Notes: a model not told the origin generated them from the letters alone. A stretch of DNA of 64,000 nucleotides from an uncultured Rhodospirillaceae bacterium (GCA_937880925.1 CALGGB010000312.1:60-64059), one strand, 5' to 3'. Positions 10,640-62,859 are shown, counted from the first letter of the stretch. Translations and numbers: made by a program.

Positions 10640-10690
10640 GCGAGAACCCACCGGGTCGCCGTACCTCCCCCAACAGGTGCGACCCGGACC

Positions 10691-10772: not shown

Positions 10773-10778
10773 GGGGGC

Positions 10779-45595: not shown

Positions 45596-45869
45596 CGGCG
45601 CGGTTCGCCGCGATGTAACCGACCAGGCCGTCGAGCGTCTCCAGTTCGGGCAGCAGTTCAGGATCGAGTTCGATGCCGACGGCCTCCTCGATCTCCATCA
45701 GCACTTCCAGGGTCGAAAGGCTGTCGAGTTCCAGGTCGGCAAAGACGATCACGCGCTCGGGCTCGTCGCGCAGGCGGGCATAGGCCGGGTCGTTGAGCAG
45801 TCCGATGGAGCGGTGCAGCGCCTCGATCGCGAGCAATCGGATGGCCGGGCGGTCGAGCGTTGCGGTCAC
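45588..45869 (-). CDS. acyl carrier protein (discrete, non-AcpP)
   Basis: 93 aa, acidic, with the phosphopantetheine attachment motif DLELDSLSTLEV. Confidence 0.75.
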   Translation of the reverse strand: MTATLDRPAIRLLAIEALHRSIGLLNDPAYARLRDEPERVIVFADLELDSLSTLEVLMEIEEAVGIELDPELLPELETLDGLVGYIAANRADA

Positions 45870-46891
45870 GGGCAGACCTCCAGGTCAAGGCGGGCGGGAA
45901 TGGCGAAGATGTCGTCGACGCGGGCCTGGCAATCCAGCGCGCCCACGGTGGTGGGCAGACCGCGCAGATAGAGACCGATCGCGGCCCAGGCCTCCAGCGC
46001 GATCGGGCGGCCAAGACAGGTATGCGCACCGGCGCCGAAGAACTGGGCGCGCTCACGCGGGTCGGCGGTCTCCCCGAAGGCACGCAGCATGATGCGCACC
46101 CGGTCCCCGGGCGCCAGCGTCAGACCCTCCACGATCGCGGACTCGTGCGCCATACGCTCGATGTAGGGCACACCCGTGGAGGAGGGCAGATCGGGCCAGT
46201 CGAGCGCGGCGAAAGGCATCCCCTGCCCCGCCGCCAGCACGTCGCGCAGGCTGTAGGCCAGGGTGCCGGTGAGCGCATCGCGCCCCAGGATCATCATGGC
46301 GAGCTTCTGGCCGACATCGGCCTGGTCGCTGACGCCGGATGCCTCGATCCGGGCGCGCGGGGCGGCAACCTCGGCCTCGGCGCGCTTGCGCTTGGCGATG
46401 CCCATGCCGCGGCTGAAGATGCGCGAGATCAGGGAATCGGCATCGAAGCCGGTGTCCGCCACGGCAATCAGCGCACCCATGAAATCGGCGACGAAGGGCT
46501 CCACCGCCTGCGCCATCAGCTCCACCTGGCCGGGCTGCCCAAGACAACCGAAATGCAGGGCGACCCGCTCCGCCATGGTCGAGAGCACGGCGCTGCGTCG
46601 CCGCGCGAGCTGGCCCGCGATCGCCTTGCGCGCGTTCGCATGCTGAGGTCCGTGCAGGCACAACGGGATGTGGCCGAAGGCCAGGCGCAGGTTGGAGAAA
46701 TCCAGCCCGAAGCGCTCCTCAAGCTCGCCATAGAGTTCGACATAGGGCGGCGGGCTGAGCGAACCATGGGTCAGGAAGGCCCGGCAGGCGGCCGCCTCAT
46801 CGACGACCCACGCACCGAGCCTTGCGTCCCAGGTCGCCGCCTCGCCTTGCTTATCCTCGATGACACTCACCTGTTCACCCCACGCACCCAA
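45866..46891 (-). CDS. cytochrome P450 family protein (short, ~341 aa)
   Basis: C-terminal Cys-pocket FGAGAHTCLG (FxxGxHxCxG) and an ExxR-like K-helix. It is ~60 aa shorter than typical P450s. Its stop overlaps the ACP start (ATGA). Confidence 0.65.
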   Translation of the reverse strand: MGAWGEQVSVIEDKQGEAATWDARLGAWVVDEAAACRAFLTHGSLSPPPYVELYGELEERFGLDFSNLRLAFGHIPLCLHGPQHANARKAIAGQLARRRSAVLSTMAERVALHFGCLGQPGQVELMAQAVEPFVADFMGALIAVADTGFDADSLISRIFSRGMGIAKRKRAEAEVAAPRARIEASGVSDQADVGQKLAMMILGRDALTGTLAYSLRDVLAAGQGMPFAALDWPDLPSSTGVPYIERMAHESAIVEGLTLAPGDRVRIMLRAFGETADPRERAQFFGAGAHTCLGRPIALEAWAAIGLYLRGLPTTVGALDCQARVDDIFAIPARLDLEVCP

Positions 46892-46979
46892 CGGCTGCTG
46901 TCAGGTGCCCTAGAGCGGATCACGATTCCGCAGAAAGATGATTTGCTCTAGGCCAATCTCGGCAGGATAGCAGGGGGAG

Positions 46980-47849
46980 TCAAACGCGCTCTGCCAGCGT
47001 GGCGCGTGCGGTCATCGCTAGTCCGCCCTGCGGCGTCTCCGCCCAGAGTTCCAGTTCGCCCGCCCCGGCGGGCTTGCCGCGCAGCACGAAGGGCGCGGTA
47101 TCGAACAGCGGCGCCACCGCGCGGAAGGAAAAAGCCGCCAGCGTCCGGCCGCCGCCATGCTCCAGCGCCAGGTCGGCGAGCAGGGTGGCGGTCAGCGGGC
47201 CGTGGAAGACGAGGCCGGGATAACCCTCGACATCGCGGCAGTAGTCGCGGTCGTAGTGGATGCGGTGGCCGTTGAAGGTGAGCGCGGAGTAGCGGAACAG
47301 CAGCACCGGCGAGGGTGTCACCGTGCGGGAGAAGACGGCATCGCCCGGGGGCGCCTGGGGTACGAGCGCCGGTGCACCTGGTGCCGGGTCCTCGCGATAG
47401 ACGATGTCGTGCTCCTCCCAGAAGCGTTCGGCGCCATCGGGGCCGGCAAGGCCGTGGCGCACGGTGACGAAACACAGGGCACCGGTGCGGCCGTGTTTGA
47501 CGGTGACATCGCGGATCGTGGAGTGGCGCATGACCGCCTCGCCCAGACGCAGCGGCGCCGAGAAACCAAAACGTCCTCCGGCCCACATGCGCCGGGGCAG
47601 GTCGACTGGCGGCAGGAATCCGCCGCGCCGGGCATGGCCGTCGCGGCCCAGACCGGAAAGCGCGACCGCCTCGTTGAAGTAGATCCAGTGCCACAGCGGC
47701 GGCAGGGCATCGCCCTCGGCGGGCTCCTGCCTGTGATCGAGCGTCGCGGCCATGCGCCGTGCCTGGCCCACGGCCAGAACATCCTGGTGCCTCTCGCTGC
47801 GCCCGATCCAGCCGCGCAGGACCTCCTCATCGGTCGTGGAAGTATTCAT
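46980..47849 (-). CDS. MaoC-family hot-dog (R)-hydratase/dehydratase (FAS1-like dehydratase N-domain + MaoC domain)
   Basis: PLWHWIYF…WAGGRF in the N-terminal half. The C-terminal half is hot-dog-like (…FHGPLTATLLADLA…). Confidence 0.55.
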   Translation of the reverse strand: MNTSTTDEEVLRGWIGRSERHQDVLAVGQARRMAATLDHRQEPAEGDALPPLWHWIYFNEAVALSGLGRDGHARRGGFLPPVDLPRRMWAGGRFGFSAPLRLGEAVMRHSTIRDVTVKHGRTGALCFVTVRHGLAGPDGAERFWEEHDIVYREDPAPGAPALVPQAPPGDAVFSRTVTPSPVLLFRYSALTFNGHRIHYDRDYCRDVEGYPGLVFHGPLTATLLADLALEHGGGRTLAAFSFRAVAPLFDTAPFVLRGKPAGAGELELWAETPQGGLAMTARATLAERV

Positions 47850-49177
47850 CGGCCTGGCCCTTCCATCAGGTCACGGAACCGGAAGGCCAGCGTGGCATCG
47901 CCGTGCAGCAACAGTGCCAGCAGGCGCGCATCACCGCCGCAATCAAGGAACTTTGCACCCACAGCATCGCTGTCCATCGGCTTGGCAAGACCGCCGCGGA
48001 CATCGGCGATGGTGGCGCTCGTTGTGCTGCCGTCGGCCATGGTCAGGCTGACGCTGTCGGGATGGGCCGGGCTCATGTCCTCCAACTCGCCATCCACCGT
48101 GTAGGCATCGATCGCAAGGCGCGTCATCAGGCCGCGCACGCGATTGTCGCGCAGCGCCTCCTCCTCGAAGGTCGCGGGCCCGATGGTCCCATGGACCAGG
48201 GCAGCGGCAACGCAGTAACGCACGCTGAAGCGGGCCTGCGCCGCGTTCCGGGGATCGAGGAAGCCGGCGACGCGGAAGAACGGTTCGGGCAGGGCGATGG
48301 TGCCTGCATGAACCGCCCCGGCATCAAAACCCGGTGCGGCGGCAAGCTGCAGGGCCGCCTCGATGGCGCGATGGGTGTAGGCGCAACTTGGCCAGGGCTT
48401 GCGCAGGGCCGGATCGGTCTCCATCGCACTGGGGCCGCAGGGCATGGCCGACCCACCCGCGCCATAGAGCGCCAGGAAGCCGTGCGGTCCCTCGCCCAGG
48501 GTGGCGTTGGCACTGACACCGGCCTCGACCAGCAGGGCCGCCTCCAGGCCGGCGCGGGCCGCAAGACCGGCATGAACCGGCTTGGCATGGCTGCCGAACT
48601 GCAGCTTCAGCCCGCCCGAGGAACTGCTCGCCAGGGCGAGCGCCATGGCGGTCTGCGCACCATCCAGCCCGAGCAGGCGCGCGGCCCCGGCGGCCGCACC
48701 GATCGGCCCGATGGTCGCGGTGGCGTGCCAGCCCGCCAGGTAGTGGTTGTAGCCGCCCAGCGCGCGGCCGCAGCAGACGATGGCGTCGTAGCCCGCCAGA
48801 TAGGCCGCCAGCAGCGAACCCAGGGAAACCTGGCGCAGGTTCGAAAGCGCCATCAGGCCGGGCACGATGGGTGCGCTGGGATGGGTCGAGCCGGGGATTT
48901 CATAATCGTCAAAATCCAGCACATGGGCCGCCGCGCCGTTGACCAGCGCCGCGGCACCGGCGGCAAGCGTTACGCCCGGCACGATGGTCGCGGCCGGGCC
49001 GCCGGCACCCGAGCGCGCCATGGCCTGCGCGATCACGCCGGGAAGCGGGTCGCTGCGCGCCGCCAGCATGCAGGCCAGCGTGTCGATGAGGCAAAGGCGC
49101 GCCTGCAACACGGCTTCGGGCACCGACGCCAGGCTCGCCACACGCGCGCCCAGCGCGGCAAAGAACGGTTCGCTCAT
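47846..49177 (-). CDS. MmgE/PrpD family protein (2-methylcitrate dehydratase-like)
   Basis: 443 aa with the MmgE/PrpD N-terminal motif (…LCLIDTLACMLAARSDP…). It overlaps the MaoC gene by 4 nt. Confidence 0.75.
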   Translation of the reverse strand: MSEPFFAALGARVASLASVPEAVLQARLCLIDTLACMLAARSDPLPGVIAQAMARSGAGGPAATIVPGVTLAAGAAALVNGAAAHVLDFDDYEIPGSTHPSAPIVPGLMALSNLRQVSLGSLLAAYLAGYDAIVCCGRALGGYNHYLAGWHATATIGPIGAAAGAARLLGLDGAQTAMALALASSSSGGLKLQFGSHAKPVHAGLAARAGLEAALLVEAGVSANATLGEGPHGFLALYGAGGSAMPCGPSAMETDPALRKPWPSCAYTHRAIEAALQLAAAPGFDAGAVHAGTIALPEPFFRVAGFLDPRNAAQARFSVRYCVAAALVHGTIGPATFEEEALRDNRVRGLMTRLAIDAYTVDGELEDMSPAHPDSVSLTMADGSTTSATIADVRGGLAKPMDSDAVGAKFLDCGGDARLLALLLHGDATLAFRFRDLMEGPGR

Positions 49178-49193
49178 GCTCTTTCCCTAAACT

Positions 49194-50201
49194 CTAGCGC
49201 GGGGCGGCGGCACGCGGCTTGCGCTGGGCCTTCATGATGCGCGCTGTTGCTTCTGGCGTCCCATCGTGAAAGCTGCCCGCCCAGAGATCGCCCGGAACGA
49301 CGCCGGTGCCGTAGTTGCAGTTGAAGTAACGATGATGGAGCTGGTGGTAGTAGCTCGCCAGATCGATCACCTTGCGCCCCTTCACCTGAAGATCGGCAAA
49401 GCCGATGTGGCTGGTGATACCACCCAGCACCAGGTGGTTGAAGAGATAGAACATGTGGATCGGGTGGCTGACGATCACCAGGTGGATAAGCGTGCTGCTG
49501 AAATAGAGCAGGTGTTCCAGCGGGTGCATGGCAAGGCCCGACCAGGGCCCGACCGCGATGTTCTTGTGGTGGATGGCGTGTGCAAAGCGATAGAGCGGCG
49601 GCCAGTGTAGCAGCCGGTGGATGAGGTAGAAGTGCGCCGATTCCCAGAGGTACAGCAGGGGAAAGAGCGCGGCGAACCACAACGGATTCGCCGCCCAGCC
49701 CAGCAGCGGCGTAAGGCCGGACGCCCAGGCCCAGAGTAGCAGGCATTGCAGGCTCGTCCAAAGGACGACACCGCTTGCCAGCGTCAGGAACATGTTGTCG
49801 AGGACCTGGTCGCGCCACAGGAACTTCGTGTCGTCGCGGGCAAGATCACGCCCGGAATAGCGGTGGTGGCTGCCCTGGCGCCCCAGGGTGTGGAAGTAGA
49901 GGTGCAGGCCGCCGGCGTAGGCAATCGTCAGCCCCAGATTGAGCGCCAGCAGGTGCAGCATCCAGCCGGGCGCAAGGCTCGCACAATCGGTGAGATCCGG
50001 TGCGAGCCAGAACCAGATGACCAGCGCCAGGCCAACATAGAGCGCCTCCAGCGACAGGACATAACCCCGGCCCAGCAACCAGGTGAGCGCGGCCAGAGGC
50101 CGCGGCGGCCAGGAAAGGAACCCTGGTCCCGGCGTGATGGGGACATCAGGCTGGAAGGCCCAGGCGGGGGCAGTGGGGGCGGACGGCTTGGCGCGCTTCA
50201 T
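49194..50201 (-). CDS. fatty acid hydroxylase / sterol desaturase superfamily membrane protein
   Basis: His boxes HRLLHW, HAIHH and HQLHHRY, plus TM helices. I use the ATG at 50201 (MKRAKPSAPT); the upstream extension of the ORF is Ser/Arg-rich and unsupported. Confidence 0.7.
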   Translation of the reverse strand: MKRAKPSAPTAPAWAFQPDVPITPGPGFLSWPPRPLAALTWLLGRGYVLSLEALYVGLALVIWFWLAPDLTDCASLAPGWMLHLLALNLGLTIAYAGGLHLYFHTLGRQGSHHRYSGRDLARDDTKFLWRDQVLDNMFLTLASGVVLWTSLQCLLLWAWASGLTPLLGWAANPLWFAALFPLLYLWESAHFYLIHRLLHWPPLYRFAHAIHHKNIAVGPWSGLAMHPLEHLLYFSSTLIHLVIVSHPIHMFYLFNHLVLGGITSHIGFADLQVKGRKVIDLASYYHQLHHRYFNCNYGTGVVPGDLWAGSFHDGTPEATARIMKAQRKPRAAAPR

Positions 50202-50310
50202 CGTGCAATGCTCCAGGGTGCCCGGCTTGTCCGGGCATCGCAGCATTCTGTGACCGGCCATGGCTTCTTGACCATGCATGGAATTCTGATGATCGTCATT
50301 CCCCGGAGGA

Positions 50311-51240
50311 ATGACGGTGCGCCCCAAACTGCCTTCCCTGCCTGCTCTTGCCGCCTTCGAGGCGGCGGTGCGCCATGGTTCCTTCACGCTGGCCGCGCGC
50401 GAACGCAACGTGCAGCAGCCCGCGATCAGCCGGCGCATCGCCGAGCTGGAAGACGAACTGGGGGTCACCCTGTTTGATCGTACCCGTCCGAACCTGCGCC
50501 TGACCGCCGACGGCGAACGTCTGGCTGCCGCGGTCGGCCACGGCCTGGGTCACATCGCGCAGGCGGTCGCCCTGATTCGCGAGCGCGGCGCGCGGCCCGG
50601 TCTGGTGGTCGACGTCACCATCGGCTTTGCCAGTTGCTGGCTGCTGGCGCGTATGGCGGGCTTCCGGGCCCTCTATCCCGACATCGAGATTCAGGTCACG
50701 ACCCGCGACGGCAACCGCGCCTTCGATGCCGAGCGCAGCGACGTCATCGTGCTGTTCAGCGATGACGAGGAACCGGGCGCCATCAACCGCAAGATTTTCG
50801 GCGAGACCCTGTTTCCGGTCGCCAGCCCGGCACTGGACACGGCAGGCCCGGCCATGACGCCGGACGACCTGCTGCAATCGCGCCTGCTCTTCCTGCGCGA
50901 TCGCATGCACGGCGGCGACTGGGCCCTGCTGCTGGAGGACAAGGGGTTGGCCGCCCCGGCGCCGCAGGCCGACGCCGAGTTCAACAGCTACATCGTCTAT
51001 CTGCAGGCGATCCTCAACGGCGAGGGTATCGGGCTGGGCTGGTCACACCTGATGGACGACCTGCTGGCCGCCGGGCGGCTGCAGCGTGTCGGCACCCTGG
51101 CGCGCACGACGCCGCGCGGCTACGTCTGCGTTCTGCCCGCAGGCAGGACGCCGCGCCCGGAGGCGCTTGCCTTTGTCGACTGGGTGACCGCGCAGGCCGG
51201 GGCGGCCACGTCAGCGGTCAGGGCTCCAGGAAGCCCATGA
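50311..51240 (+). CDS. LysR family transcriptional regulator, divergent from the hydroxylase operon
   Basis: LysR HTH ([40 protein letters not shown]) plus a substrate-binding domain. Confidence 0.85.
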
Positions 51241-52323: not shown

Positions 52324-53001
52324 TCAGGCCAAGGGCGGGCGGCGACCGAAGATCGCCGTGCCGACGCGGACATGGGTCGCACCGAAGGCGACGGCCACGG
52401 CATAGTCGCCCGACATGCCCATGGAAAGCTGGACGAGATCGTTGCGCCTGGCGATCTCCGCCAGCAGGGCAAAGTGGTGGCTGGGTTCCTCTTCCACCGG
52501 GGGGATGCACATCAGGCCGACGACATTGAGCCCGGCCTCCCGCGCCGCCGCCACCAGGGCGTCGGTCTCCTCGGGCAGGCAGCCGGCCTTCTGGGGCTCC
52601 TCTCCAGTGTTGACCTGGACGAAGCAGGCGGGATGACGGTCCTGCTTCTCCACCTCCTTGGCCAGTGCCTTGACCAACTTCTCACGGTCGATGCTCTCGA
52701 TGACATCGAAGAGCGCGACGGCTTCCCTGGCCTTGTTGGTCTGCAGCGGGCCGATCAGGTGGAGCTCGATATCGGGAAAGCGCGCCTTCAGCGCCGGCCA
52801 CTTGGCCTCGGCCTCCTGCACGCGGTTCTCGCCGAAGACACGCTGGCCGGCTTCCAGAGCGGGGAGGATGCGTTCGGCCTCATGGGTCTTGGAGACCGCG
52901 ACCAGCGTCACGGCATCGCCATCGCGGCCGGCATCGCGCGCGGCCTGCGCGATCTCGGCCTGTACGGCGGCAAGGTTTTCGGCGACGTCCTGATTGCTCA
53001 T
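52324..53001 (-). CDS. yggS: YggS family pyridoxal-phosphate homeostasis protein
   Basis: The PLP-lysine region [13 protein letters not shown] and the overall YggS/PROSC pattern. Its ATG overlaps the stop of the last sulfotransferase gene (ATGA). Confidence 0.85.
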
Positions 53002-53834
53002 GCTTCCTCGTCCAGATAGCCAAAGCGGCGCATTACCGCGCCGTGGTCGGCCTCGATGCGTGCGCGCTGCTTGTCGCTGAGGATAGCGCGCCAGCCGCCC
53101 GAACGTCCCTTGCGGAAGAACTTCTCCTGCTTTTCCGAACGCTCGCCGAAGCCCTTGCGGCTTTCCTGGCGCGTCAGCTTGTCGAAGGCGGTGTTCTCGA
53201 TCGCTTTCCTGACCACCGAGGCCGGCACATCCAGATGGAGGAAGGTCACGACCTGGCCGAAGGTCTGCTTGGGCCGGGCGAGCATGTCCTCGTAGCGCAC
53301 ATGGGTCACCGTCGCGCCCTCCTGAGCCGTCCAGCTCGAGACGTGCTGCGACCAGGTGCCGAGGAACTCCGCCACGCCCTTGTCCCCGACCTCGGTCATG
53401 GCGTCGGCCGTCGCCATGCTCTCGATCGTGGAGTCGATGGTGACGCCCAGGTGATCGGCATAGGAGACCACGACGTCGCGCGGGTCGCGCACGATGTAGA
53501 TCGCGCCCAGGGTGAGATCGGGATCGTGACTGGGCGTGCCCGAGAGGCCCGTGAGCATGGAGTGGGTCTTGACCAGCACGGTGCCGGGTCTGCTTTCGGC
53601 CATGGCGCGCTGCACGCGCGGGCGCAGGCGCACCACATCCTCGGCGTCCATCTCCTCCCAGGGTTTGGTAAGGAAAGGTTCGTAGTAGCGCCGCCCGGCA
53701 TCCATCATCGCGGTCCTGGAGATGGCGTTGAGATCGAGCGGTCCGCCGCGGTCATGGATGACGTTGTGCAGGAAGGCGCGCATCCAGGTGTTGCCGGATT
53801 TGGGATAACTCGCCAGCCAGAGAATCTTGCCCAT
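52998..53834 (-). CDS. PAPS-dependent sulfotransferase family protein, paralog 1 of 10 (subtype B)
   Basis: Starts MGKILWLASYPKSGNTW (5'-PSB motif) and has a VKTH catalytic His, IVRDPRDV (3'-PB) and FFRKGRSGGWR. Start is the internal Met of ORF 52998..53930, overlapping the stop of paralog 2 (TGATG). Confidence 0.85.
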   Translation of the reverse strand: MGKILWLASYPKSGNTWMRAFLHNVIHDRGGPLDLNAISRTAMMDAGRRYYEPFLTKPWEEMDAEDVVRLRPRVQRAMAESRPGTVLVKTHSMLTGLSGTPSHDPDLTLGAIYIVRDPRDVVVSYADHLGVTIDSTIESMATADAMTEVGDKGVAEFLGTWSQHVSSWTAQEGATVTHVRYEDMLARPKQTFGQVVTFLHLDVPASVVRKAIENTAFDKLTRQESRKGFGERSEKQEKFFRKGRSGGWRAILSDKQRARIEADHGAVMRRFGYLDEEA

Positions 53835-54670
53835 CACACAGCCTCGGGCAGGTAGCCGAAACGCGCCATCTGCTGGCCGTGGCGATCGATGATGCGCTGG
53901 GCCTGTTCGCTCGTGAGGTCGCGGCGCCATGCGCCAACCCCGCCGCCCCCGAAAAAACGCCTCTTCTCGCTGGCACTCTCGACAAACCCCTCCTCGCGCT
54001 CCTGGTCGCGCAGGTTTTCGATATCGCTGTGGGCAATGGCACGCTCAAGCCGTTCGGACGGCACATCCAGGCCCAGGAATCGGGTCAGGCCGCCGAAGGC
54101 GGCGACCGGGTCGGCGACCATGTCCTCGTAGCGCATGACATGGATGCGGGGATGGGGTTGCTGCGTCCAGCTCTTCACGTTCTGCGACCAGCCGCCCTGG
54201 AGATAGGGAAACACATCGCGGAAACGTTTGGTCACGTAGTCCTTGCGCGCCATCACCTCGATCGTCTGGTCGATGGTCGTGCCGTTGTGCCGGGCATAGG
54301 ACTGGGCGACATCCAGCGGATTGCGCACGATGTAGATCGCGCCCGAGAGCACATCCTGGGCAAACGGCGGCACGCCTTCCCAGGGCAGCAATGCGGCATG
54401 GGTCTTCATGAAGATGGTGTCGGGACCCAGCCCCGCGACATGGCGCTGGGCGGCATGGCGCAGGCGCGCGACATGTTCGTAGGACCAGGTGCTGTCGTCG
54501 CTGTCATCGACCGCGCGGTACCATTCGCCTGCGGTGTCGCCGGTCGAGAGCTTGCCGATCTCGGCCAGCGGCACGGGTTCCTTGCTGTTGGTGAACAGGT
54601 TGACGAGGAAGATCCGCGTCCAGGTGTTGCCCGATTTCGGGTAGCTGGCCAGCATCAGAAGATTGCCCAT
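53834..54670 (-). CDS. PAPS-dependent sulfotransferase family protein, paralog 2 of 10 (subtype A)
   Basis: MGNLLMLASYPKSGNTW, MKTHAAL, IVRNPLDV, FFGGGGVGAWRRDL, C-terminal MARFGYLPEAV. Confidence 0.85.
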   Translation of the reverse strand: MGNLLMLASYPKSGNTWTRIFLVNLFTNSKEPVPLAEIGKLSTGDTAGEWYRAVDDSDDSTWSYEHVARLRHAAQRHVAGLGPDTIFMKTHAALLPWEGVPPFAQDVLSGAIYIVRNPLDVAQSYARHNGTTIDQTIEVMARKDYVTKRFRDVFPYLQGGWSQNVKSWTQQPHPRIHVMRYEDMVADPVAAFGGLTRFLGLDVPSERLERAIAHSDIENLRDQEREEGFVESASEKRRFFGGGGVGAWRRDLTSEQAQRIIDRHGQQMARFGYLPEAV

Positions 54671-54679
54671 GGTCGGCTC

Positions 54680-55516
54680 CTAACGCTCCCCGGGAAGGTA
54701 GTCGAAGCGCGCCATCTGCTCGCCATGGCTCTTCACGATGGCATCGACCTGCGCCGCGCTCAGGGCCTCGCGCCAGCCGCCGGCACGGCCGGAGCGGAAG
54801 AATCGATCCTGTGCCGGCGTGCGCTCGACGAACCCTGCCCTGGCCTCCATCGCGGCGACCTTGTCGAAGGCGGCGTTGTCAGCCGCCCTGCGCACGCTCG
54901 CCTCGTCGGTCTCGATACGCATGAAGCGGGCAAGGGCAAGGAAGCTTCCGGCCGGGTCGGCCAGCATGTCTTCGTAACGCATGACATGGAGCTGGGGTGA
55001 GGCCTGGGTCGTCCAGCTTGCGACATGCTGGGACCAGGAACCCATGACCTCGTTGACATTGGTGGCGTTGGTCGGCGTGCGGAACATGCTCTGGCCCATC
55101 AGCGCGATAATGGCGTCGATCTCCACGCCCTGGTGATGGGCATAGGAGACCGCGACATCAAGCGGATTGCGCACGACATAGATCGCGCCGTGGCTGACCG
55201 CCATGTTGATCGACGGCACGCCGTGGTCGCGCACGAAGGCGCTGTGGGTCTTGACCGGAACGATGCCGGGGCCGGTGGCGGCGATGCGCTCCTGAACCTT
55301 GGGGCGCATGCGCGCGATCTCGGCCGGGCTCCATTGCTGCCAGGGTCGCCGATCGACAAGCGCGAACCCCGCCGTGCCCGGTTCGGCGAGCGTTGCCTCC
55401 CCGACCCGGTTGATGTCGACCGGTGCGCCATCGCCCTTCAGCAGATTGGCAAGGAAGATGCGGACCCAGGTGTTGCCCGACTTGGGGTAGCTGGCGAGCC
55501 AGAGAATGCGTCCCAT
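54680..55516 (-). CDS. PAPS-dependent sulfotransferase family protein, paralog 3 of 10 (subtype B)
   Basis: MGRILWLASYPKSGNTW, VKTHSAF, VVRNPLDV, FFRSGRAGGWR, C-terminal MARFDYLPGER. Confidence 0.85.
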   Translation of the reverse strand: MGRILWLASYPKSGNTWVRIFLANLLKGDGAPVDINRVGEATLAEPGTAGFALVDRRPWQQWSPAEIARMRPKVQERIAATGPGIVPVKTHSAFVRDHGVPSINMAVSHGAIYVVRNPLDVAVSYAHHQGVEIDAIIALMGQSMFRTPTNATNVNEVMGSWSQHVASWTTQASPQLHVMRYEDMLADPAGSFLALARFMRIETDEASVRRAADNAAFDKVAAMEARAGFVERTPAQDRFFRSGRAGGWREALSAAQVDAIVKSHGEQMARFDYLPGER

Positions 55517-55518
55517 GG

Positions 55519-56379
55519 CTACCAGCCCTCCGGCACGTAGCCGAAGCGGGTCATCTGCGCCCGGTGGCGCGCAACGATGGCGCGGGCCTCTGCCTCGGGC
55601 AGGTCGCGCTTCCAGGCATCGACGCCGCCACGTCCGAAGAAGGCCTGCTCACCCCCCTTGCCGAACAGGTTCTTCGTACCGCTGCGGCCGAACTCGCCGT
55701 CGCGCGTTTCCAGTTCCTTGAGCACCGGCAGTGCGCTGTTGGCAAGCGCCCGCTCGAAGCGTTCTCCAGTCGCCTCAAGCCCCAGGAACCGGCAGATGCC
55801 GCCGAAGCCCTCCTGAGGCTTCGCCACTATGTCCTCGTAACGCACGACATGAAGGCGGGGATGGGGCTTTGCGGTCCAGCTCGCGACATGCTGGGACCAG
55901 CCGCCCAGGAGATACTCCACCTCATCGGCCGAACGCGTGAGCATGAAATCGCGCGTGCCCATGGTTTCGACCATGCGCGCGGTGGCGACCTTGCTGTGGC
56001 GGGCATAGGACGGCGCCACGTCGAGCGGGTTGCGCACGATGCAGATGGCGCCGGCCATCAGTTTGGGCGCGAACGGCGGCAGTCCCGCCATCGGCAACAG
56101 TGCGGCATGGGTCTTCATGAAGGCGGTATCGGGCACCATGCCGGCAATATTCTCCTGCACCCGGTGGCGCATCGCGGCGACCTCGCCGGTGGTCCAGGCG
56201 GAGGGATCGCGCGCGTCAAGCTGGCGGTACCAGACCATGGCGACGTCGGAGGCCGAAAAGCGGCTGGCCTCCGAAGGCAGGATCGGCTCGGAGCGGTTGG
56301 CAAACAGGTTGGCAAGGAAGATGCGAAGCCAGGTGTTGCCGGACTTGGGGTAGCTCGCGAGATAGACGATGGCCGACAT
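55519..56379 (-). CDS. PAPS-dependent sulfotransferase family protein, paralog 4 of 10 (subtype A)
   Basis: MSAIVYLASYPKSGNTW, MKTHAAL, IVRNPLDV, FFGRGGVDAWKRDL, C-terminal MTRFGYVPEGW. Confidence 0.85.
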   Translation of the reverse strand: MSAIVYLASYPKSGNTWLRIFLANLFANRSEPILPSEASRFSASDVAMVWYRQLDARDPSAWTTGEVAAMRHRVQENIAGMVPDTAFMKTHAALLPMAGLPPFAPKLMAGAICIVRNPLDVAPSYARHSKVATARMVETMGTRDFMLTRSADEVEYLLGGWSQHVASWTAKPHPRLHVVRYEDIVAKPQEGFGGICRFLGLEATGERFERALANSALPVLKELETRDGEFGRSGTKNLFGKGGEQAFFGRGGVDAWKRDLPEAEARAIVARHRAQMTRFGYVPEGW

Positions 56380-56388
56380 GGCGACAGC

Positions 56389-57225
56389 CTACCAGCCATC
56401 GGGCAGATAGCCGAAACGGGCCATCTGGACACGGTGGCGCGCCACGATGCGGCGCGCCTGGGCTTCACTGAGATCGCGGCGCCAGGCATCGACACCGCCA
56501 CCGCCGAAAAAGGGCGTCGTCTCGTCTGGCCGTTCGGCGAAACCGTCGCGCGCCTCCATGGTGCGCAGCAGATTGATATCGCTGTTGGCGATGGCGCGCT
56601 CGAGGCGTTCGGGTGCGATGTCGAGACCCAGGAAACGCGCGACGCTGCCGAAGACCGAACGCGGCTGGGTGACCATGTCCTCGTAGCGCAGGACGTGGAT
56701 GCGCCGGTTCTTCTCGCGCGTCCAGCTCGCCACGTTCTGCGACCAGCCGCCCTGAAGATAGGGCAACACGCCCTTGGCGCGTGGCGGCACATAGTCCGCC
56801 CGCTCCATGACGTTGATGATGTTGTCGATGGGGATGGCGCTGTGGCGGGCATAGGAGGGCGCGATGTCGAGCGGATTGCGCACGATGCAGATCGCTCCCA
56901 GCGTCACCTCCGGGGCAAGCGGGGGCAGGCCGGCCATCGGGGCGAGCGCGGCGTGGGTTTTGACAAAGGCGGTGTCGGGTGTCTGCGCCGCGATGTAGCG
57001 CTGGACGTCATGGCGCAGCCTGGCGATATCCGCCAGGGTCCAGCTTGCCGGGTCGCGCTTGTCGACTTTTGTGTACCAGATCTCGGTGTTGTCGGCGGTT
57101 GTCCTTTCGCTGACCAGGTCCAGGGGGACAGGCTCGTCGCTGTCGCTGTAGAGGTTGAGCAGGAACAGGCGCAGCCAGGTGTTGCCGGACTTGGGGTAGG
57201 AGGCCAGGAAGACGATGTTGCCCAC
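56389..57225 (-). CDS. PAPS-dependent sulfotransferase family protein, paralog 5 of 10 (subtype A)
   Basis: MGNIVFLASYPKSGNTW, VKTHAAL, IVRNPLDI, FFGGGGVDAWRRDL, C-terminal MARFGYLPDGW. Confidence 0.85.
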   Translation of the reverse strand: MGNIVFLASYPKSGNTWLRLFLLNLYSDSDEPVPLDLVSERTTADNTEIWYTKVDKRDPASWTLADIARLRHDVQRYIAAQTPDTAFVKTHAALAPMAGLPPLAPEVTLGAICIVRNPLDIAPSYARHSAIPIDNIINVMERADYVPPRAKGVLPYLQGGWSQNVASWTREKNRRIHVLRYEDMVTQPRSVFGSVARFLGLDIAPERLERAIANSDINLLRTMEARDGFAERPDETTPFFGGGGVDAWRRDLSEAQARRIVARHRVQMARFGYLPDGW

Positions 57226-57228
57226 GGT

Positions 57229-58065
57229 TCAGCCTTCTTCGGGCAGATAGCCGAAGCGGGCCATCTGCGCGTGATGCTTCTCGACGACGCGGGCAACCTG
57301 TTGGGAGCTCAGCACATCGCGCCAGCCCCCGGCCCGGCCTTCGCGAAAGAAGCTCTTCTGGATTTTCGTCTTTTCCCAGAAACCGGAGCGTTCCTCCTGG
57401 CGGCGCAGTTCCTTGAACGAGGCGTTCTTGATCGCCTTGCGCAGCGCCTGGCGCGTCACCGGGATGCCGAGAAACTTCACCAGTCCGCCAAAGGCCGTCT
57501 GGGGATCGGCCAGCATGTCCTCGTAACGCATGACGTGGAGACCGGGATTGGGCCGGGCCGTCCAGCTTTCGACATGCTGGCTCCAGTTGCCCATGGGTTC
57601 GGCAACCGTGGTGTGGGTGGTGGGCGGCTCGTGGTTGTCGAGATTGAGTACCTCGATCGCCTTGTCGATCGGCAGGCCCTGGTGATCGGCAAAGGAAGGC
57701 ACGACATCGAGCGGATTGCGCACCAGGTAGATCGCGCCCGCTGTGACCGAAAGGTTGATCGTGGGATGTCCGTGGGCCTGCATGACCGCCAGGTGGGTCT
57801 TGGAGAACAGGTTGCCGGGCTGGGTCGAGGCGATCCAGGCCTGCACCCGGGGGCGCAGGGCGGCGACCTGCGCGGGTGTCCATTCCTGCCAGGGACGTTC
57901 CTCGAAGCGCACGAAGTTGGCTGTGGCCGCCTCGTTGGACGAAAGCTTGTCCATCTTGTTGATGTCGTAGGCACCGTCGCCACCAGCAAACAGGTTGTGC
58001 AGGAAGGCCCGCGTCCAGGTGTTGCCGGATTTCGGGTAGGACGCGATCCAGACGATCTTGCCCAT
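57229..58065 (-). CDS. PAPS-dependent sulfotransferase family protein, paralog 6 of 10 (subtype B)
   Basis: MGKIVWIASYPKSGNTW, SKTHLAV, LVRNPLDV, FFREGRAGGWR, C-terminal MARFGYLPEEG. Start is the internal Met of ORF 57229..58164. Confidence 0.85.
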   Translation of the reverse strand: MGKIVWIASYPKSGNTWTRAFLHNLFAGGDGAYDINKMDKLSSNEAATANFVRFEERPWQEWTPAQVAALRPRVQAWIASTQPGNLFSKTHLAVMQAHGHPTINLSVTAGAIYLVRNPLDVVPSFADHQGLPIDKAIEVLNLDNHEPPTTHTTVAEPMGNWSQHVESWTARPNPGLHVMRYEDMLADPQTAFGGLVKFLGIPVTRQALRKAIKNASFKELRRQEERSGFWEKTKIQKSFFREGRAGGWRDVLSSQQVARVVEKHHAQMARFGYLPEEG

Positions 58066-58067
58066 GA

Positions 58068-58907
58068 TCAGGCCTCCTCTGGCAGGTAGCCGAAGCGGGC
58101 CATCTGCTCGCGGTGATCGGCGATCACGCGGGCGGCCTGCCGGGCCGTCAGTTCCTGTCGCCACTGCCCGGCCGTACCCTTGCGGAAGAACGCCTTCTGA
58201 TGGGCCGGTTTTTCGGAGAAACCGTGTTCTTCTTCCTGCTTGCGCAGGCTCTTGAACGAAGCGTGTTCGATGGCGCGTTCAATCCGCTTGCGATCGAAGC
58301 GCTGGCCCAGATAGCCGGTGATGCCGGTGAAGGTTTTCACCGGCTGCTCCAGCAGATCCTCGTAGCGCATGACATGGACCCCCCGGTTCGTCTGGCCCGT
58401 CCAGCTTGCGACGTGCTGGGACCAGCTTGCCATGTGCTCGCTGACATTGCGTTCGTTGGTCGGCGTCGAGAACCCATCCGTTCCCATGATGGCGATGGCG
58501 GTATCGACGGCACAGGCCTGGAAGTCGGCAAAGGAAAGCACGATGTCGAGCGGGTTGCGCACGATGTAGATCGCCCCGGCGCTGACCGCCATGTTGACGG
58601 TTGGATGGCCGTTGATCGTGGTCAGCGCGTTGTGGGTCTTGCAGAAGACTGTGCCCTCTGCGCTGTCGGCGATCATCTTGTGGACGCGCGGGCGCATGCG
58701 CGCGATGTCGGCGGCCTTCCATTGCGCCGGCGGGCGCGGATCGGCGATGCGGTACCAGCCGATCGCCGATTCACCCTGGGCGAACATGCCGCTGGGACGG
58801 TCGACCGCCAGCGGCCGGGCGGCATCGTGCATCAGGTTGTCGAGGAAGGCGCGCACCCAGGTGTTGCCGGACTTGGGGTAGGAGGCGAGCCAGACGATGT
58901 TGCTCAC
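58068..58907 (-). CDS. PAPS-dependent sulfotransferase family protein, paralog 7 of 10 (subtype B)
   Basis: MSNIVWLASYPKSGNTW, CKTHNAL, IVRNPLDI, FFRKGTAGQWR, C-terminal MARFGYLPEEA. Confidence 0.85.
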   Translation of the reverse strand: MSNIVWLASYPKSGNTWVRAFLDNLMHDAARPLAVDRPSGMFAQGESAIGWYRIADPRPPAQWKAADIARMRPRVHKMIADSAEGTVFCKTHNALTTINGHPTVNMAVSAGAIYIVRNPLDIVLSFADFQACAVDTAIAIMGTDGFSTPTNERNVSEHMASWSQHVASWTGQTNRGVHVMRYEDLLEQPVKTFTGITGYLGQRFDRKRIERAIEHASFKSLRKQEEEHGFSEKPAHQKAFFRKGTAGQWRQELTARQAARVIADHREQMARFGYLPEEA

Positions 58908-59752
58908 GATGCCTCCCCTTGGGCCAGATAACCAAAGCGGGCCATCTGTTTGCCGTGGTCTGCGGCGATGCGGGCCGCCTGCTCCTGCGTGAGACTGTCG
59001 CGCCAGCCGCCGGCGACGCCGCGGCGGAAGAAACGCTCCTGGGCGGGCGAGCGTTCGTCGAAGCCGTCGCGGTCCTCCAGGGCACGCATGGTGGCAAAGG
59101 AGGTGTTGGCGATGGCGCGGTTGATCCGTTCCAGCGAGGCATCGAGCTTCAGGAAGTCGACCACCGCGCCGAAGGCCTTTTTCGGATTGGCATGGAGATC
59201 CTCGTAGCGCACGACGTGGATGGCGGGACTGGGCCGGGCGGTCCAGCTCGCGACATGCTGGGACCAGCTTCCCATCGGTTCGGCGACCTGGTTGTCACCC
59301 GCGGGCACCTCCAGGTTGGCGGTCGCCAGCGACGTGATGGCGGCGTCCACGGTGATGCCATGAAAGTCGGCAAAGGAAAGGGCGACATCGCGGGGATCGC
59401 GCACGATGTAGAGCGCACCGGCGGTGACCGACATCTCGATCGTGGGCACGCCGTGGATCAGAAGCAGCGGCAGGTGAGTCTTGCAGAAGACGCTGCCCGG
59501 ATGGGAGGCGGCGATGGTCTTCTGCACGGCAGGGCGCATGCGCGCGAGCTCGGCAGAGGTCCATTGTGTCGGCGGGCGGCGGTCCAGTGTCTGGTACCAG
59601 TGCAGGGAGGATGCGCTGGCCGAAATTCGGCCACCACGCGTGGCCGACAGCGGCAACGGCTTTTCGGCATCGGCGAAGATGTGATGCAGGAACGCGCGCA
59701 GCCAGGTGTTGCCAGACTTCTGATAGGAGGAAAGCCAGATGATGTTACCCAT
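58904..59752 (-). CDS. PAPS-dependent sulfotransferase family protein, paralog 8 of 10 (subtype B, variant PSB motif SYQKSGNTW)
   Basis: MGNIIWLSSYQKSGNTW (P to Q in the 5'-PSB loop), CKTHLPL, IVRDPRDV, FFRRGVAGGWR. It overlaps paralog 7 by 4 nt. Confidence 0.8.
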   Translation of the reverse strand: MGNIIWLSSYQKSGNTWLRAFLHHIFADAEKPLPLSATRGGRISASASSLHWYQTLDRRPPTQWTSAELARMRPAVQKTIAASHPGSVFCKTHLPLLLIHGVPTIEMSVTAGALYIVRDPRDVALSFADFHGITVDAAITSLATANLEVPAGDNQVAEPMGSWSQHVASWTARPSPAIHVVRYEDLHANPKKAFGAVVDFLKLDASLERINRAIANTSFATMRALEDRDGFDERSPAQERFFRRGVAGGWRDSLTQEQAARIAADHGKQMARFGYLAQGEAS

Positions 59753-59791
59753 GGCCCGGCCCCCCGCACGCGCGGTGATCGCTGCGACACC

Positions 59792-60643
59792 TCACCCGTC
59801 GTACCCTTCGGGGATGTAGCCGAAGCGGGCCATCTGCTCGCGGTGTACGGCGACGACCCGGTGAATCTGCTCAGGGCTGAGCACATCGCGCCAGCCGCCG
59901 GCGCGGCCTTCGCGGAAGAAATGTTGCTGGGCGGCCGAGCGTTCGGGGAAGCCTTCGGTTTCCTCCTGCTTGCGCAGCTCCTTGAAGTCGGAGTGGCGCA
60001 CGGCCCGCTCCAGGCGCTCTTCGGTGGCTTCCAGGCGCAGGAAGGCTGTCACCTTGCGGAAGGTGCCTACGGGATCGGCGATCAGATCCTCGTAGCGCAC
60101 GATGTGGAGACCGGGCCCGGGTCTGGCGGTCCAGCTCAGGACGTTCTGCGACCAGCTTCCCAGGACCTCGTTGATGCCCTCGTCGACCCGCGGCATGACC
60201 AGGCTGTCGGTCGCCATCAGGGTGATCGCCTTGTCGATCGTGATGCCTTCGAAATCGGCGAACGAGATCGCCACGTCGAGCGGATTGCGCACGATGTAGA
60301 TCGCCCCGGTGGAAACCTGCAGGTTGACCGTGGGATGGCCGGCGATGCGCATGACCGGCGCGTGGATCTTGCAGAAGACGGTGCCCTGGTGGCCCTCGGC
60401 GATCAGCTTCTGGGCCGGTGCACGCATGCGGTCGATGTCGGCCACACTCCACTTCTCGGGTGGGCGCGGATCGAGCGGCAGGAACCATTTCAGGGTCGTT
60501 GCGGCCGTGGTGATGCCGCCGCCGCCCATTTCCTTCAGCGGCAGGGGCTCGCGCGCATTGGTGAACAGGTTGTGCAGCAGCGCGCGCATCCAGGTGTTGC
60601 CGGATTTCGGGTAGGAGGCCAGCCAGATGATGTTGCCCATCAC
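59792..60643 (-). CDS. PAPS-dependent sulfotransferase family protein, paralog 9 of 10 (subtype B)
   Basis: MMGNIIWLASYPKSGNTW, CKIHAPV, IVRNPLDV, FFREGRAGGWR. Either Met may be the start; the second gives an ATGA-type overlap with paralog 10. Confidence 0.85.
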   Translation of the reverse strand: MMGNIIWLASYPKSGNTWMRALLHNLFTNAREPLPLKEMGGGGITTAATTLKWFLPLDPRPPEKWSVADIDRMRAPAQKLIAEGHQGTVFCKIHAPVMRIAGHPTVNLQVSTGAIYIVRNPLDVAISFADFEGITIDKAITLMATDSLVMPRVDEGINEVLGSWSQNVLSWTARPGPGLHIVRYEDLIADPVGTFRKVTAFLRLEATEERLERAVRHSDFKELRKQEETEGFPERSAAQQHFFREGRAGGWRDVLSPEQIHRVVAVHREQMARFGYIPEGYDG

Positions 60644-61488
60644 GCCACCGCCGAGTGGTCAGCCTTGAGATAGCCAAAGCGCTGCATCTGGATGCGATGG
60701 CGCTGCTCGATGGCCCGTGCCAGTTCGCCCGCCAGCTCGCGCCGCCAGGCGCCGGCCACGCCCTTGCGGAAGAAGCGGTCCGCATGGCCGGGGCGCTCGC
60801 GGAAGCCGCGCTTCTTCTCCTGATCGGCAAGCGCCTTGAAGGAACTGTTGCGCAGCGCCGCATTGAGCCTGGGCGCAGGCACATCCAGGCCCAGGAACCG
60901 GGTGACGCCGGTGAAACACCTGATGGTGTCGCGCAGCATGTCCTCGTAGCGCACGACATGGAGTCCCGGACTCGCCTGCGCGGTCCAGCTTTCGACATGC
61001 TGGGACCAGCTCCCGATGACATCGGGCATCATGGCGGCGCTGGCGTCGGTGTGCGCGTTGTCAGTGGCCATCAGTTCGACGATGCGTTCGTGGGACTGAC
61101 CCAGGTGATGGGCAAAGGAAAGCGCGACATCGCGGGGATCGCGCACGATGTAGATCGCGCCGGCGGTGACACCCATGTCGATGGTGTCGGCGCCGTAGAT
61201 GTGCAGCAAGGCGCTGTGGGTCTTGACGAAGCGGGAGCCCGAGGCCGCCCCGGCGAGGCTCTGCTGGACCTTGCCGCGCAGACCGATCGCCTGCTCGACC
61301 GTCAGGCTGTCGGCCGGCTTGCCCGCGATTCCGGCGTAGAGCGCGGGATCGACATCGCCCCCGGTCAGTTCGTCGAGCCGGTTGATGTCATGCGGCGACG
61401 GCGCGGCCAGCATCAGGTTGTGCAGGAAGGCGCGCATCCAGGTGTTTCCCGACTTCGGGTAGGAGGCGAGCCAGACGATTTTTCCCAT
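60640..61488 (-). CDS. PAPS-dependent sulfotransferase family protein, paralog 10 of 10 (subtype B), first gene of the array
   Basis: MGKIVWLASYPKSGNTW, VKTHSAL, IVRDPRDV, FFRKGVAGAWR, C-terminal MQRFGYLKADHSAVA. Confidence 0.85.
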   Translation of the reverse strand: MGKIVWLASYPKSGNTWMRAFLHNLMLAAPSPHDINRLDELTGGDVDPALYAGIAGKPADSLTVEQAIGLRGKVQQSLAGAASGSRFVKTHSALLHIYGADTIDMGVTAGAIYIVRDPRDVALSFAHHLGQSHERIVELMATDNAHTDASAAMMPDVIGSWSQHVESWTAQASPGLHVVRYEDMLRDTIRCFTGVTRFLGLDVPAPRLNAALRNSSFKALADQEKKRGFRERPGHADRFFRKGVAGAWRRELAGELARAIEQRHRIQMQRFGYLKADHSAVA

Positions 61489-61599
61489 GATTCCCGGCGT
61501 TTGGCTGCGGCGGAGTGAGCCGGGACATCTAGCATGAAGGCGGCCGCAGGGGCCAGCCCCGGACCATCATGATGCTCCGCGCCATCCCGGACGCAGGGC

Positions 61600-61630
61600 A
61601 AAAAGAAAGGGGCGGTCCGAAGACCGCCCC
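61600..61630 (-). terminator. rho-independent terminator of the porin gene (minus strand)
   Basis: On the minus strand GGGGCGGTC-ttcg-GACCGCCCC is followed by TTTCTTTTT. It separates the porin gene from the sulfotransferase array. Confidence 0.75.
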
Positions 61631-61653
61631 TTCCCGATCGGATCTGGTGAAGC

Positions 61654-62859
61654 TTAGAAGCTCACCATGATGCCGGCACCAGCGAAGTACGAGTCGTACT
61701 CCCGGCTGGCAGCGCCATCGTTGAACTGATCGAAGCCGACAGTACCGGTGACGGCAATGCCCGGGCCCATGTCGTACTGGGCCTGGACGCGGTAGGCATC
61801 GAACTTGTCGGTGACACCATTACCCGCACCGGCAATCGGACCGGCCGCGACGCCAAGGGCGCCCGGAGCGAAATCGGTCTCAGCGTGCAGCCAGTAAGCA
61901 CCCATCGACCAGGCGCCGTCCGACCAGTACGCAATACCGAGGTCCATCGCCCACTGATCGGTGCCCGCGAAGCCACGCATGTTGGACACGTTCAGGTACG
62001 AACCACCGAAGCCCCAGTTGCCGTAGTACAGAACCAGGCCGGCGTTGTAGGCCTCATGATCCTTGGCCTGGATGCTCGGGCTGACCGTGCTGCCGACTGC
62101 CTGGTCATAACCCAGGGCAACCGTCACGCCCAGATCGCCGATCTCGCCGTCGTAACGGCCGGCAATCGACCACTCTTCGGCCAGCGCGGGAGCGGTACCG
62201 GTGCTCGCCGTGCGGGTGCCGAGGAAGTAACCGCCGCCCGAACGGGCTTCGCCCTGGCTCGGCGCATAGCTGATGCCGAACTGGAAGCCGTTGAAGACCG
62301 GGGTGAAGTACATCAGCTGCGCATCGTCGCCCGTCATACCGGGGAAGGTCGCGAACGTGGCATAGCCAGCGCCAGCGGCCGTACGGCCGGTTGCCGAGAA
62401 GAACTGCGACAGACCGTTGGTGAAGACGGTCGCCGAGTTCGCCCCGAACAGGTAGTTCAGGTAGGGAGCCGCGGTCGCCATCGAGTACGACACGGGATCG
62501 TCGTTGCCGACACGGAACGTACCGAACGAGCCCTCGAGGTAGACGTAGGTCTCGTCCTGCTGGTCGCCCTGGGTCTCACCCTCGAGCTCGAAGCGGACAC
62601 CAACCTCGAGACCATTGTCGAGGACGGTCTTGCCCTTGAACTGGATCTCGCCGTCGAAGACGATGCGGTTGTCGTAGCGGTTGAAACCGGGCTGTGCCGG
62701 CAGGGATGCCGTCGCGGCGTTCGAATCGTTGTCGCCGATCCAGGTAGCCCAATTCTGATAGCCACCAACGTTCAGCTCGATCGGATCGGCCGCCTGCGCC
62801 TGCTGCGCGACGAGACCCGCCGAGACAAGCGCCGTGGTTCCAAGAAGAACCTTCTTCAT
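61654..62859 (-). CDS. outer-membrane porin (alphaproteobacterial porin family)
   Basis: Signal peptide MKKVLLGTTALVSAGLVAQQAQA, a Gly/Tyr-rich amphipathic beta-strand pattern and a C-terminal …GAGIMVSF with terminal Phe. I use the ATG at 62859. Confidence 0.7.
   Translation of the reverse strand: MKKVLLGTTALVSAGLVAQQAQAADPIELNVGGYQNWATWIGDNDSNAATASLPAQPGFNRYDNRIVFDGEIQFKGKTVLDNGLEVGVRFELEGETQGDQQDETYVYLEGSFGTFRVGNDDPVSYSMATAAPYLNYLFGANSATVFTNGLSQFFSATGRTAAGAGYATFATFPGMTGDDAQLMYFTPVFNGFQFGISYAPSQGEARSGGGYFLGTRTASTGTAPALAEEWSIAGRYDGEIGDLGVTVALGYDQAVGSTVSPSIQAKDHEAYNAGLVLYYGNWGFGGSYLNVSNMRGFAGTDQWAMDLGIAYWSDGAWSMGAYWLHAETDFAPGALGVAAGPIAGAGNGVTDKFDAYRVQAQYDMGPGIAVTGTVGFDQFNDGAASREYDSYFAGAGIMVSF

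Follow-up and report, generated by a model that had tools for sequence, protein, structure and literature searches.

Why would a bacterium keep ten sulfotransferases side by side, and on what would they act? The question is raised by a stretch of 64,000 nucleotides from an uncultured Rhodospirillaceae bacterium (GCA_937880925.1, CALGGB010000312.1:60-64059; the whole stretch is called the window below), which carries ten consecutive sulfotransferase (ST) open reading frames (ORFs) on its minus strand between positions 52998 and 61488. They are numbered ST10 to ST1 in the direction of transcription, are directly preceded by a Porin_4 gene on the same strand and are followed by yggS (Table 1). 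As enzymes, the STs are unremarkable representatives of a well-known family; the novelty lies in the architecture of the array, its age and its linkage. The answer proposed here is a tentative one, given a little under an even chance: the array would be a battery of cytoplasmic STs, dependent on 3′-phosphoadenosine-5′-phosphosulfate (PAPS), with different small-molecule acceptors.

The original prediction described ten minus-strand ORFs of 278-286 amino acids (aa), tightly packed with short gaps and overlaps of 1-4 nucleotides (nt), and the ORF listing bears this out. These lengths take an internal ATG, aligned with the other copies, as the start of ST1 and ST6, whose longest possible ORFs are 310 and 311 aa. 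The junctions from ST10 to ST1 measure -4, 39, -4, 2, 3, 9, 2, 9 and -1 nt, and the packing extends into yggS, with the ST1 stop overlapping the yggS start by 4 nt. An equal ST-yggS overlap is found in two related arrays, L085 (GCA_002722885.1, 'Rhodospirillaceae bacterium') and L088 (GCA_040262975.1), and yggS lies downstream of an ST in about 30 homologous loci. From ST10 through ST1 to yggS the genes appear to be packed as one long transcription unit, in which yggS is probably translationally coupled to ST1.

Table 1. Genes and elements of the sulfotransferase array and its borders, with the positional ortholog of each ST copy in the related array L088 and the identity to it
Feature	Position	Strand	Length	Profile match (E-value)	L088 ortholog (identity)	Remarks
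ST10	60640..61488	minus	282 aa	PF00685 (4.8e-27)	gene a (55%)	First array gene
ST9	59792..60643	minus	283 aa	PF00685 (3.3e-29)	gene c (60%)	GTG start; 4-nt overlap with ST10
ST8	58904..59752	minus	282 aa	PF00685 (3.6e-34)	gene d (53%)	
ST7	58068..58907	minus	279 aa		gene e (59%)	Slowest-evolving, most ancestral-like copy
ST6	57229..58065	minus	278 aa	PF00685 (1.1e-29)	gene f (60%)	
ST5	56389..57225	minus	278 aa	PF00685 (2.9e-25)	single slot g, shared with ST4 and ST2 (49-51%)	Window-specific triplet ST5/ST4/ST2
ST4	55519..56379	minus	286 aa	PF00685 (2e-24)	slot g (49-51%)	8-residue insertion before FF(R/G)xG motif
ST3	54680..55516	minus	278 aa	PF00685 (1.3e-27)	gene h (72%)	Best conserved copy across distant arrays
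ST2	53834..54670	minus	278 aa	PF00685 (3.5e-27)	slot g (49-51%)	
ST1	52998..53834	minus	278 aa	PF00685 (2.2e-28)	gene j, last array gene (63%)	Last array gene; start overlaps ST2 stop by 1 nt
yggS	52324..53001	minus	225 aa	TIGR00044 (1.2e-50)		YggS-family pyridoxal phosphate-binding protein
Porin_4 outer-membrane porin	61654..62859	minus	401 aa	PF13609 (1.3e-33)		Same start called in metagenome contigs
Intrinsic-terminator-like hairpin	61600..61634	minus				GGAAGGGGCGGUC-UUCG-GACCGCCCCUUUC then U run; about 20 nt past porin stop
Leader	61489..61599	minus	about 110 nt			From hairpin to ST10 start

The frames are supported by their base composition: the minus-strand ST frames have a G+C content at third codon positions (GC3) of 0.79-0.87, in sequence of 66% G+C. 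Two plus-strand ORFs opposite the array (55423-58089, 888 aa; 58919-60673, 584 aa) were considered as genes and rejected after they failed a screen for GC3 above 0.78 and second-position G+C (GC2) below 0.60, which the minus-strand frames passed. These long antisense ORFs are shadows cast by high-GC coding sequence on the opposite strand. At least 14 metagenome contigs, assembled independently, encode a protein identical to ST8, and on two of them all ten genes appear with the same neighbours. Since the identical array recurs in independent metagenome assemblies, an assembly artefact is ruled out.

All ten copies match Pfam family Sulfotransfer_1 (PF00685) with 87-119 bits (E 2e-24 to 3.6e-34), well above its gathering cutoff of 22 bits, and their only Pfam matches are PF00685 and PF13469. 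The hidden Markov model (HMM) check of the predicted sulfotransferase fold is thus positive throughout, and an AlphaFold model agrees with it. No NCBIfam model matches any of the ten ST copies, and PADLOC-DB defence profiles gave no match for four ST copies or the porin. A ten-way alignment with 49 invariant columns upholds the claim that every copy keeps the full PAPS-sulfotransferase motif set and its catalytic residues. In the 5′-phosphosulfate loop, S9, Y10 and K12-W17 are invariant in the ten copies and in 60 homologs. K89 and H91 of the KTH motif are invariant in the alignment and, in the sequence comparison with the PDB, fall opposite the hLPl block of SULT1A3, and the 3′-phosphate motif retains R116, P118, D120 and S124 in all ten. 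Other invariant columns are W161-S162-Q163, F239-F240-G243-W248 and M268/R270/F271/Y273. The departures from the motifs are small: P11 is Q in ST8, the KTH motif reads KIH in ST9, and ST2, ST5 and ST9 have N instead of H in the WSQ(H/N)V block. Thus every enzyme retains the lysine of the PKSGNTW loop, the RNPxDxxxS 3′-phosphate motif and the FFRxGxxGxWR motif, all of them PAPS-binding elements, along with the catalytic histidine. The ten STs are probably PAPS-dependent.

The kind of sulfotransferase can be narrowed by structure. Sequence matches of ST8 in the PDB are SULT1A1/1A3 and Teg12, and identity to StaL/Teg12 is 17-24%. The AlphaFold model (predicted local distance difference test score, pLDDT, 93) has StaL and the cytosolic SULTs as its closest solved folds. 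Structure matching of the model gave values of 16-19.5 for small-molecule sulfotransferases (StaL 19.5; mouse SULT3A1 and human SULT1B1 19.4; SULT7A1 19.1; plant LGS1 and SOT18 17.5-17.8), 13-14 for tyrosylprotein sulfotransferases, 13.9 for the olefin-synthase ST domain, 11-12 for heparan sulfate 3-OST and NDST, and 10-12 for mycobacterial Stf1 and Stf9. The ST copies do not match the Stf0-type profile. Features of the PAPS-independent ASST enzymes, namely a beta-propeller and a signal peptide, are likewise absent, and the model has a P-loop-like sulfotransferase fold. The N-terminus of the ST proteins runs straight into a strand and the cofactor loop (from residue 9), with no signal peptide or membrane segment, and they are therefore cytoplasmic. 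The ten STs are soluble and belong to the structural class of cytosolic SULTs and StaL.

The family is large: of 8,000 database candidates scored, over 7,000 proteins reached E ≤ 1e-20. Among GTDB species representatives, 79 loci were detected, at most 48% identical to ST1, most of them alphaproteobacterial (Rhodospirillales-like groups, Parvibaculum, Sneathiella, Kiloniella, Pelagibius, Acetobacteraceae, Stellaceae and Hyphomicrobiales) and a smaller group from Lysobacterales. When the related arrays L085, L087 and L088 are added, the largest tandem block among the 82 loci consists of one copy in 68, two in eight, three in two and four in one. Large arrays are found in a common syntenic slot, with leuS, DUF3576 and the porin before the STs and yggS and trpS after them; most other Alphaproteobacteria have 1-4 copies in this slot. 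L085 has eight copies, L088 ten and L087, on a 3.75-Mb contig, five; among close relatives, L092 has eight and L093 at least ten, their ST7 orthologs being 87% and 86% identical, respectively. The original prediction held that an array of this size is unlike any described system and proposed a search of related genomes. The search succeeded: relatives hold 5-10 copies in the same slot, so the array is not unique to this genome, and the claim stands insofar as no characterised array was found.

Other arrangements were encountered among these loci. In L090 (4769-8648), three tandem Transposase_31 genes stand directly upstream of a two-copy ST block, which is followed by yggS; the porin is absent. 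In L065 (6466-9982), as in L053, L066, L077 and L078 (Lysobacterales/Rudaea), two proteins of 550-630 aa with TPR and Sulfotransfer_3 domains precede a single ST homolog, and this is a different multi-sulfotransferase locus, from Gammaproteobacteria. What looked like additional sulfotransferases in L047, L052 and L080 did not survive a second HMM check. When neighbouring ORFs were grouped by single linkage, chained clusters and high-GC shadow clusters resulted.

How old is the array? Pairwise identity among the ten copies is 38-58% (mean 45%), close to the predicted 40-60%, with ST5 55-58% identical to ST4 and ST2 (58% to ST2). Orthology was based on identity matrices and collinearity, as the short deep branches of a neighbour-joining tree made it no more than a rough guide. 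Array copies are 53-72% identical to their positional orthologs in other genomes, which are arranged in collinear order. ST10 finds its best matches in the first array gene of both L088 and L085 (54% in L085) and is 85% identical to its counterpart in L092. ST6 orthologs are 60-63% identical in L085, L087 and L088 and 90% in L092, those of ST3 are 70-72% identical in L085, L087 and L088, and the ST1 ortholog is the last array gene of L085 (68%). From these collinear orthologs it follows that an array with at least 7-8 distinct slots predates the split of these genomes. ST5, ST4 and ST2 map to one slot 'g' in L085, as they do in L088, and are a later, lineage-specific multiplication. Homologs from other genomes are closest to ST7, ST6 or ST1, never to ST2, ST4 or ST5.

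The array is also maintained under purifying selection. Against L092, the ratio of nonsynonymous to synonymous substitution rates (dN/dS) is 0.14-0.24 for ST10, ST9, ST8, ST7, ST6 and ST3 (ST9, 0.14), compared with 0.14 for yggS and 0.28 for the porin. ST5/ST4/ST2 and ST1 have best matches in L092 of 58-69% identity and dN/dS of 0.34-0.49 (0.41-0.49 for ST5/ST4/ST2), and every copy is well below 1. The pattern indicates that turnover is faster in the promoter-distal half of the array. The identity among paralogs and the slot-specific collinear orthologs rule out a recent amplification, and the earlier view that these are old, diverged copies is strengthened by both the orthologs and the low dN/dS of six copies.

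Divergence of this kind raises the possibility of divergent acceptors. In a specificity comparison of eight orthogroups from six arrays, 13 positions were conserved within a slot and differed between slots. Nine of the 13 fall in ST7 residues 44-51 and 93-105, the latter directly after catalytic His92, and the other four are ST7 residues 73, 128, 159 and 234. Unlike these slot-specific loop positions, the PAPS-contacting blocks are nearly invariant. In characterised SULTs, residues beside the catalytic histidine and adjacent loops form the acceptor pocket. Because the loops by the catalytic histidine differ between slots and are kept within them, the ten enzymes probably have ten different acceptor or regio-specificities. 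As suggested by the modelled fold, the acceptors are most likely small molecules, such as phenolic, alcoholic or steroid/terpenoid-like metabolites or xenobiotics, and it is inferred that small molecules are more likely than polysaccharides. With PAPS from synthesis genes elsewhere in the genome as the sulfo donor, each ST would sulfate a hydroxyl or amine on the acceptor that it prefers. The array would then be a bacterial battery for sulfo-conjugation, much like the expanded SULT families found in animals and plants.

A cofactor supply is encoded beside the ST in some relatives. In five single-copy loci (L009, L018, L022, L038 and L054), the ST and yggS are separated by a conserved gene of the cysN/cysC type, and cysD and cysN/C come directly after the ST. 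L054 (10001-13660) encodes ST, cysD and cysN/C in series, with a 4-nt ST/cysD overlap; its cysD matches NF003587 (E 2e-97) and its cysN/cysC fusion NF004035 (E 5e-174). This gene order is what would be expected of a PAPS-consuming enzyme with its own cofactor supply and lends indirect support to the PAPS-dependent activity proposed for the STs, and nodPQ/nodH provide a comparable arrangement of a sulfotransferase with cofactor supply. The cysN/C-like protein of L038 has no detectable GTPase domain.

The other partner of the array is the porin. Its terminator-like hairpin has an RNA fold of -32.9 kcal/mol (z -2.6). The consensus promoter and terminator scan missed this clear minus-strand hairpin, and its negatives are unreliable in the window: it found no minus-strand terminator inside the array, a weak result since the porin terminator escaped it, and no sigma-70 promoter match in the leader. 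Transcription of the array may start at a promoter within the leader or come from read-through of the porin terminator. Across other genomes, 30 of 31 porin-to-ST junctions have a GC-rich hairpin with a T-rich tail just past the porin stop, with 19-210 nt separating the hairpin from the ST start. At 19-22 nt in L042, L046 and L091, the leader has no room for a promoter, which argues for read-through expression there. In the window, ST expression is probably low relative to the porin, through terminator read-through or a weak promoter in the leader.

Of 70 homologous loci with enough flank, 28 have a same-strand porin no more than 1 kb upstream. L091 carries four porin+ST pairs in tandem, one of them inverted, with the conserved hairpin inside each pair. 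The identity rankings of its porins (56-71%) and STs (65-89%) are congruent, and the pair was therefore duplicated as a unit. Elsewhere, porins alone are multiplied in L058 and L080, and both genes in L063, L027 and L008. The link between porin and ST is thus tighter than passive synteny would require. Around the L091 pairs (1-12000 of ERZ25069580, a 1.33-Mb contig) lie a phage-type integrase, a TrwC relaxase, a Mu-like transposase and a Gp49/HTH toxin-antitoxin-like pair, which places this porin+ST module in a mobile context. No PDB entry is related in sequence to the porin of the window. It is speculative that the pore admits substrates or sulfate. A bolder proposal, possible but rather doubtful, is that porin, terminator and ST(s) form an unrecognised alphaproteobacterial functional module, in which a pore and a variable cytoplasmic ST battery cooperate, either in 'phase-II' conjugation of pore-entering compounds or in porin-matched envelope sulfation, with a copy number of 1-10 tuned by habitat.

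Several points weigh against a battery for small molecules. The absence of cysDN/cysC near the array, as first predicted, extends to the entire window, which has no cysD, cysN, cysC or cysQ and no gene for PAPS synthesis or a 3′-phosphoadenosine-5′-phosphate (PAP) phosphatase. The operon encodes no inner-membrane importer or exporter, and the proposed acceptor class is drawn from fold similarity only. Other points could direct attention to the cell envelope: the strong, conserved link to an outer-membrane porin; the ST of L068, which is flanked by an outer-membrane protein (OMP) and GT1; and L087, where a lipopolysaccharide (LPS)/polysaccharide-type cluster (1-8100) takes the porin's place beside the five-copy array and comprises Glyco_transf_9, a Wzx-like flippase, GT4, Methyltransf_21, two distant sulfotransferase-like genes and a DUF4096 transposase fragment. 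The main competing explanation is sulfation of the envelope. Working on the cytoplasmic side of the inner membrane, the STs would modify several positions of a glycoconjugate, be it the LPS core or O-antigen, a capsule or a glycolipid, and porin and STs would co-vary since porins and surface glycans co-adapt, whether under phage pressure or with sulfate replacing phosphate as surface charge. Duplication of porin+ST pairs as units would suit this account, as would porin and ST copy numbers that are highly variable even among close relatives, which is typical of surface-related loci. It is nevertheless considered unlikely, if well short of negligible. The fold is clearly nearer to small-molecule than to carbohydrate sulfotransferases, no glycosyltransferase or polysaccharide-export genes are found in the window or adjoining the array in L085, L088 and L092, and the leuS-lptE neighbourhood is a generic conserved block. 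Furthermore, LpsS, the LPS sulfotransferase of Sinorhizobium meliloti, is annotated as a member of the Stf0 family (PMC12445080, Table 1), a profile different from the two Pfam families matched here.

The remaining explanations fare worse. That all copies appear co-transcribed and are maintained together would fit a single polysulfated product, a secondary metabolite or osmolyte to which the ten enzymes add one sulfate each in sequence. This is improbable, however, given that no scaffold-biosynthesis genes, such as those for nonribosomal peptide synthetases (NRPS) or polyketide synthases (PKS), occur in the window or in the flanks of related arrays, with NRPS and PKS genes absent beside the arrays of L085, L088 and L092, and that copy numbers of 1, 2, 5, 8 and 10 among relatives, and of 8 to at least 10 among close ones, are a poor fit to a fixed pathway. 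Sulfation of Tyr, Ser or Thr in the adjacent porin or another exported protein or peptide, as by RaxST on RaxX, would make sense of pairs that duplicate together while the porins diverge faster than the STs. Inconsistent ratios (a single porin for ten STs here, four porins for a single ST in L058), closest folds that are small-molecule enzymes, and a porin N-terminal region in which no acidic Tyr motif stands out among the translations inspected leave it very improbable. A similarly slight chance is given to redundant dosage amplification or decaying duplicates without functional diversification. The lineage-specific multiplication of ST5/ST4/ST2 and its raised dN/dS are in its favour; against it are ten intact copies with catalytic residues, their low identity, slot-specific orthologs across genera and dN/dS well below 1 in every copy. 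Pure dosage amplification is excluded because of the divergence and the slot-specific orthologs. The reading preferred here remains a battery of cytoplasmic, PAPS-dependent STs with different small-molecule acceptors.

The surroundings of the array are those of a core genome. trpS lies 113 nt past yggS, and beyond the porin come DUF3576 (in the window) and, on metagenome contigs, leuS, lptE and likely holA. The rest of the 64 kb encodes core-genome functions, including MetK, TrmB, Lnt, CorC, YbeY, MiaB, MucR, FtsK and an ammonium transporter, and Rfam detected no RNA family anywhere in the window. Only three sulfur-related genes are found in it, a SulP permease with a STAS domain (300-1892), a TauD-family dioxygenase (3591-4790) and a TauE/SafE-family exporter (25430-26434); they lie 27-52 kb from the array, with no evident link to it. 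Between trpS and trmB-metK, a six-gene insertion (44711-51240) holds a LysR regulator, a member of the fatty-acid hydroxylase family, PrpD/MmgE, a MaoC-like dehydratase and two ORFs without a Pfam match. In L085 and L088, trmB-metK follow trpS directly, without this insertion.

PAPS-dependent sulfation is well understood in animals and plants and poorly mapped in bacteria, where few isolated enzymes have known substrates. Here is a conserved core-genome site at which STs have multiplied to ten distinct, maintained copies, linked to a pore and, in some relatives, to PAPS supply. If the enzymes do serve different small-molecule acceptors, the array would be a bacterial counterpart of the eukaryotic SULT families for detoxification and conjugation, and a source of at least ten new regio- or substrate-selective sulfation biocatalysts. 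Were the acceptors instead envelope components, the array would represent a new way of modifying surface charge among Alphaproteobacteria that are widespread in water and soil. Relatives in culture that carry 1-3 copies include Parvibaculum indicum, whose strain DSM 25305 has two, Kiloniella spongiae, Pelagibius and Acidiphilium rubrum; for Sneathiella, the source here is a metagenome-assembled genome (MAG) only.

How does the array compare with known systems? Full-text searching of the literature found no description of bacterial PF00685 tandem arrays, of a porin-sulfotransferase module or of an ST-yggS operon. Rhizobial nodH with nodPQ sulfates Nod factors, and a Bacteroides SULT with its cysDNC cluster produces cholesterol sulfate. 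Both resemble the single-copy relatives in setting an ST beside a PAPS-synthesis module, whereas the large arrays and the window have no adjacent cys genes. Multiple ST genes at one bacterial locus are also a feature of the synechan xss cluster of Synechocystis (PMC8205485) and of Pontiella (PMC7356697); in these clusters the STs are reportedly interspersed with glycosyltransferases and Wzx/Wzy export genes, whereas ten paralogs stand back to back here without such genes. LpsS shares with the proposed envelope role an alphaproteobacterial, PAPS-dependent sulfation of the envelope, and differs in belonging to Stf0, another family than that of the ten STs. StaL and Teg12/13/14 (PDB 2ov8, 3mgb, 3nib) are encoded inside NRPS glycopeptide clusters and act on one scaffold, whereas the present array places ten copies among core-genome housekeeping genes, outside any biosynthetic cluster, and the related loci likewise hold housekeeping genes only. 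The SULT and SOT enzymes of animals and plants (SULT1A1, SULT2A1 and Arabidopsis SOT18) carry about 40 extra N-terminal residues ahead of the cofactor loop, and each has a transcript of its own; here, in contrast, bacterial genes form a polycistronic array that follows a porin and is coupled to yggS.

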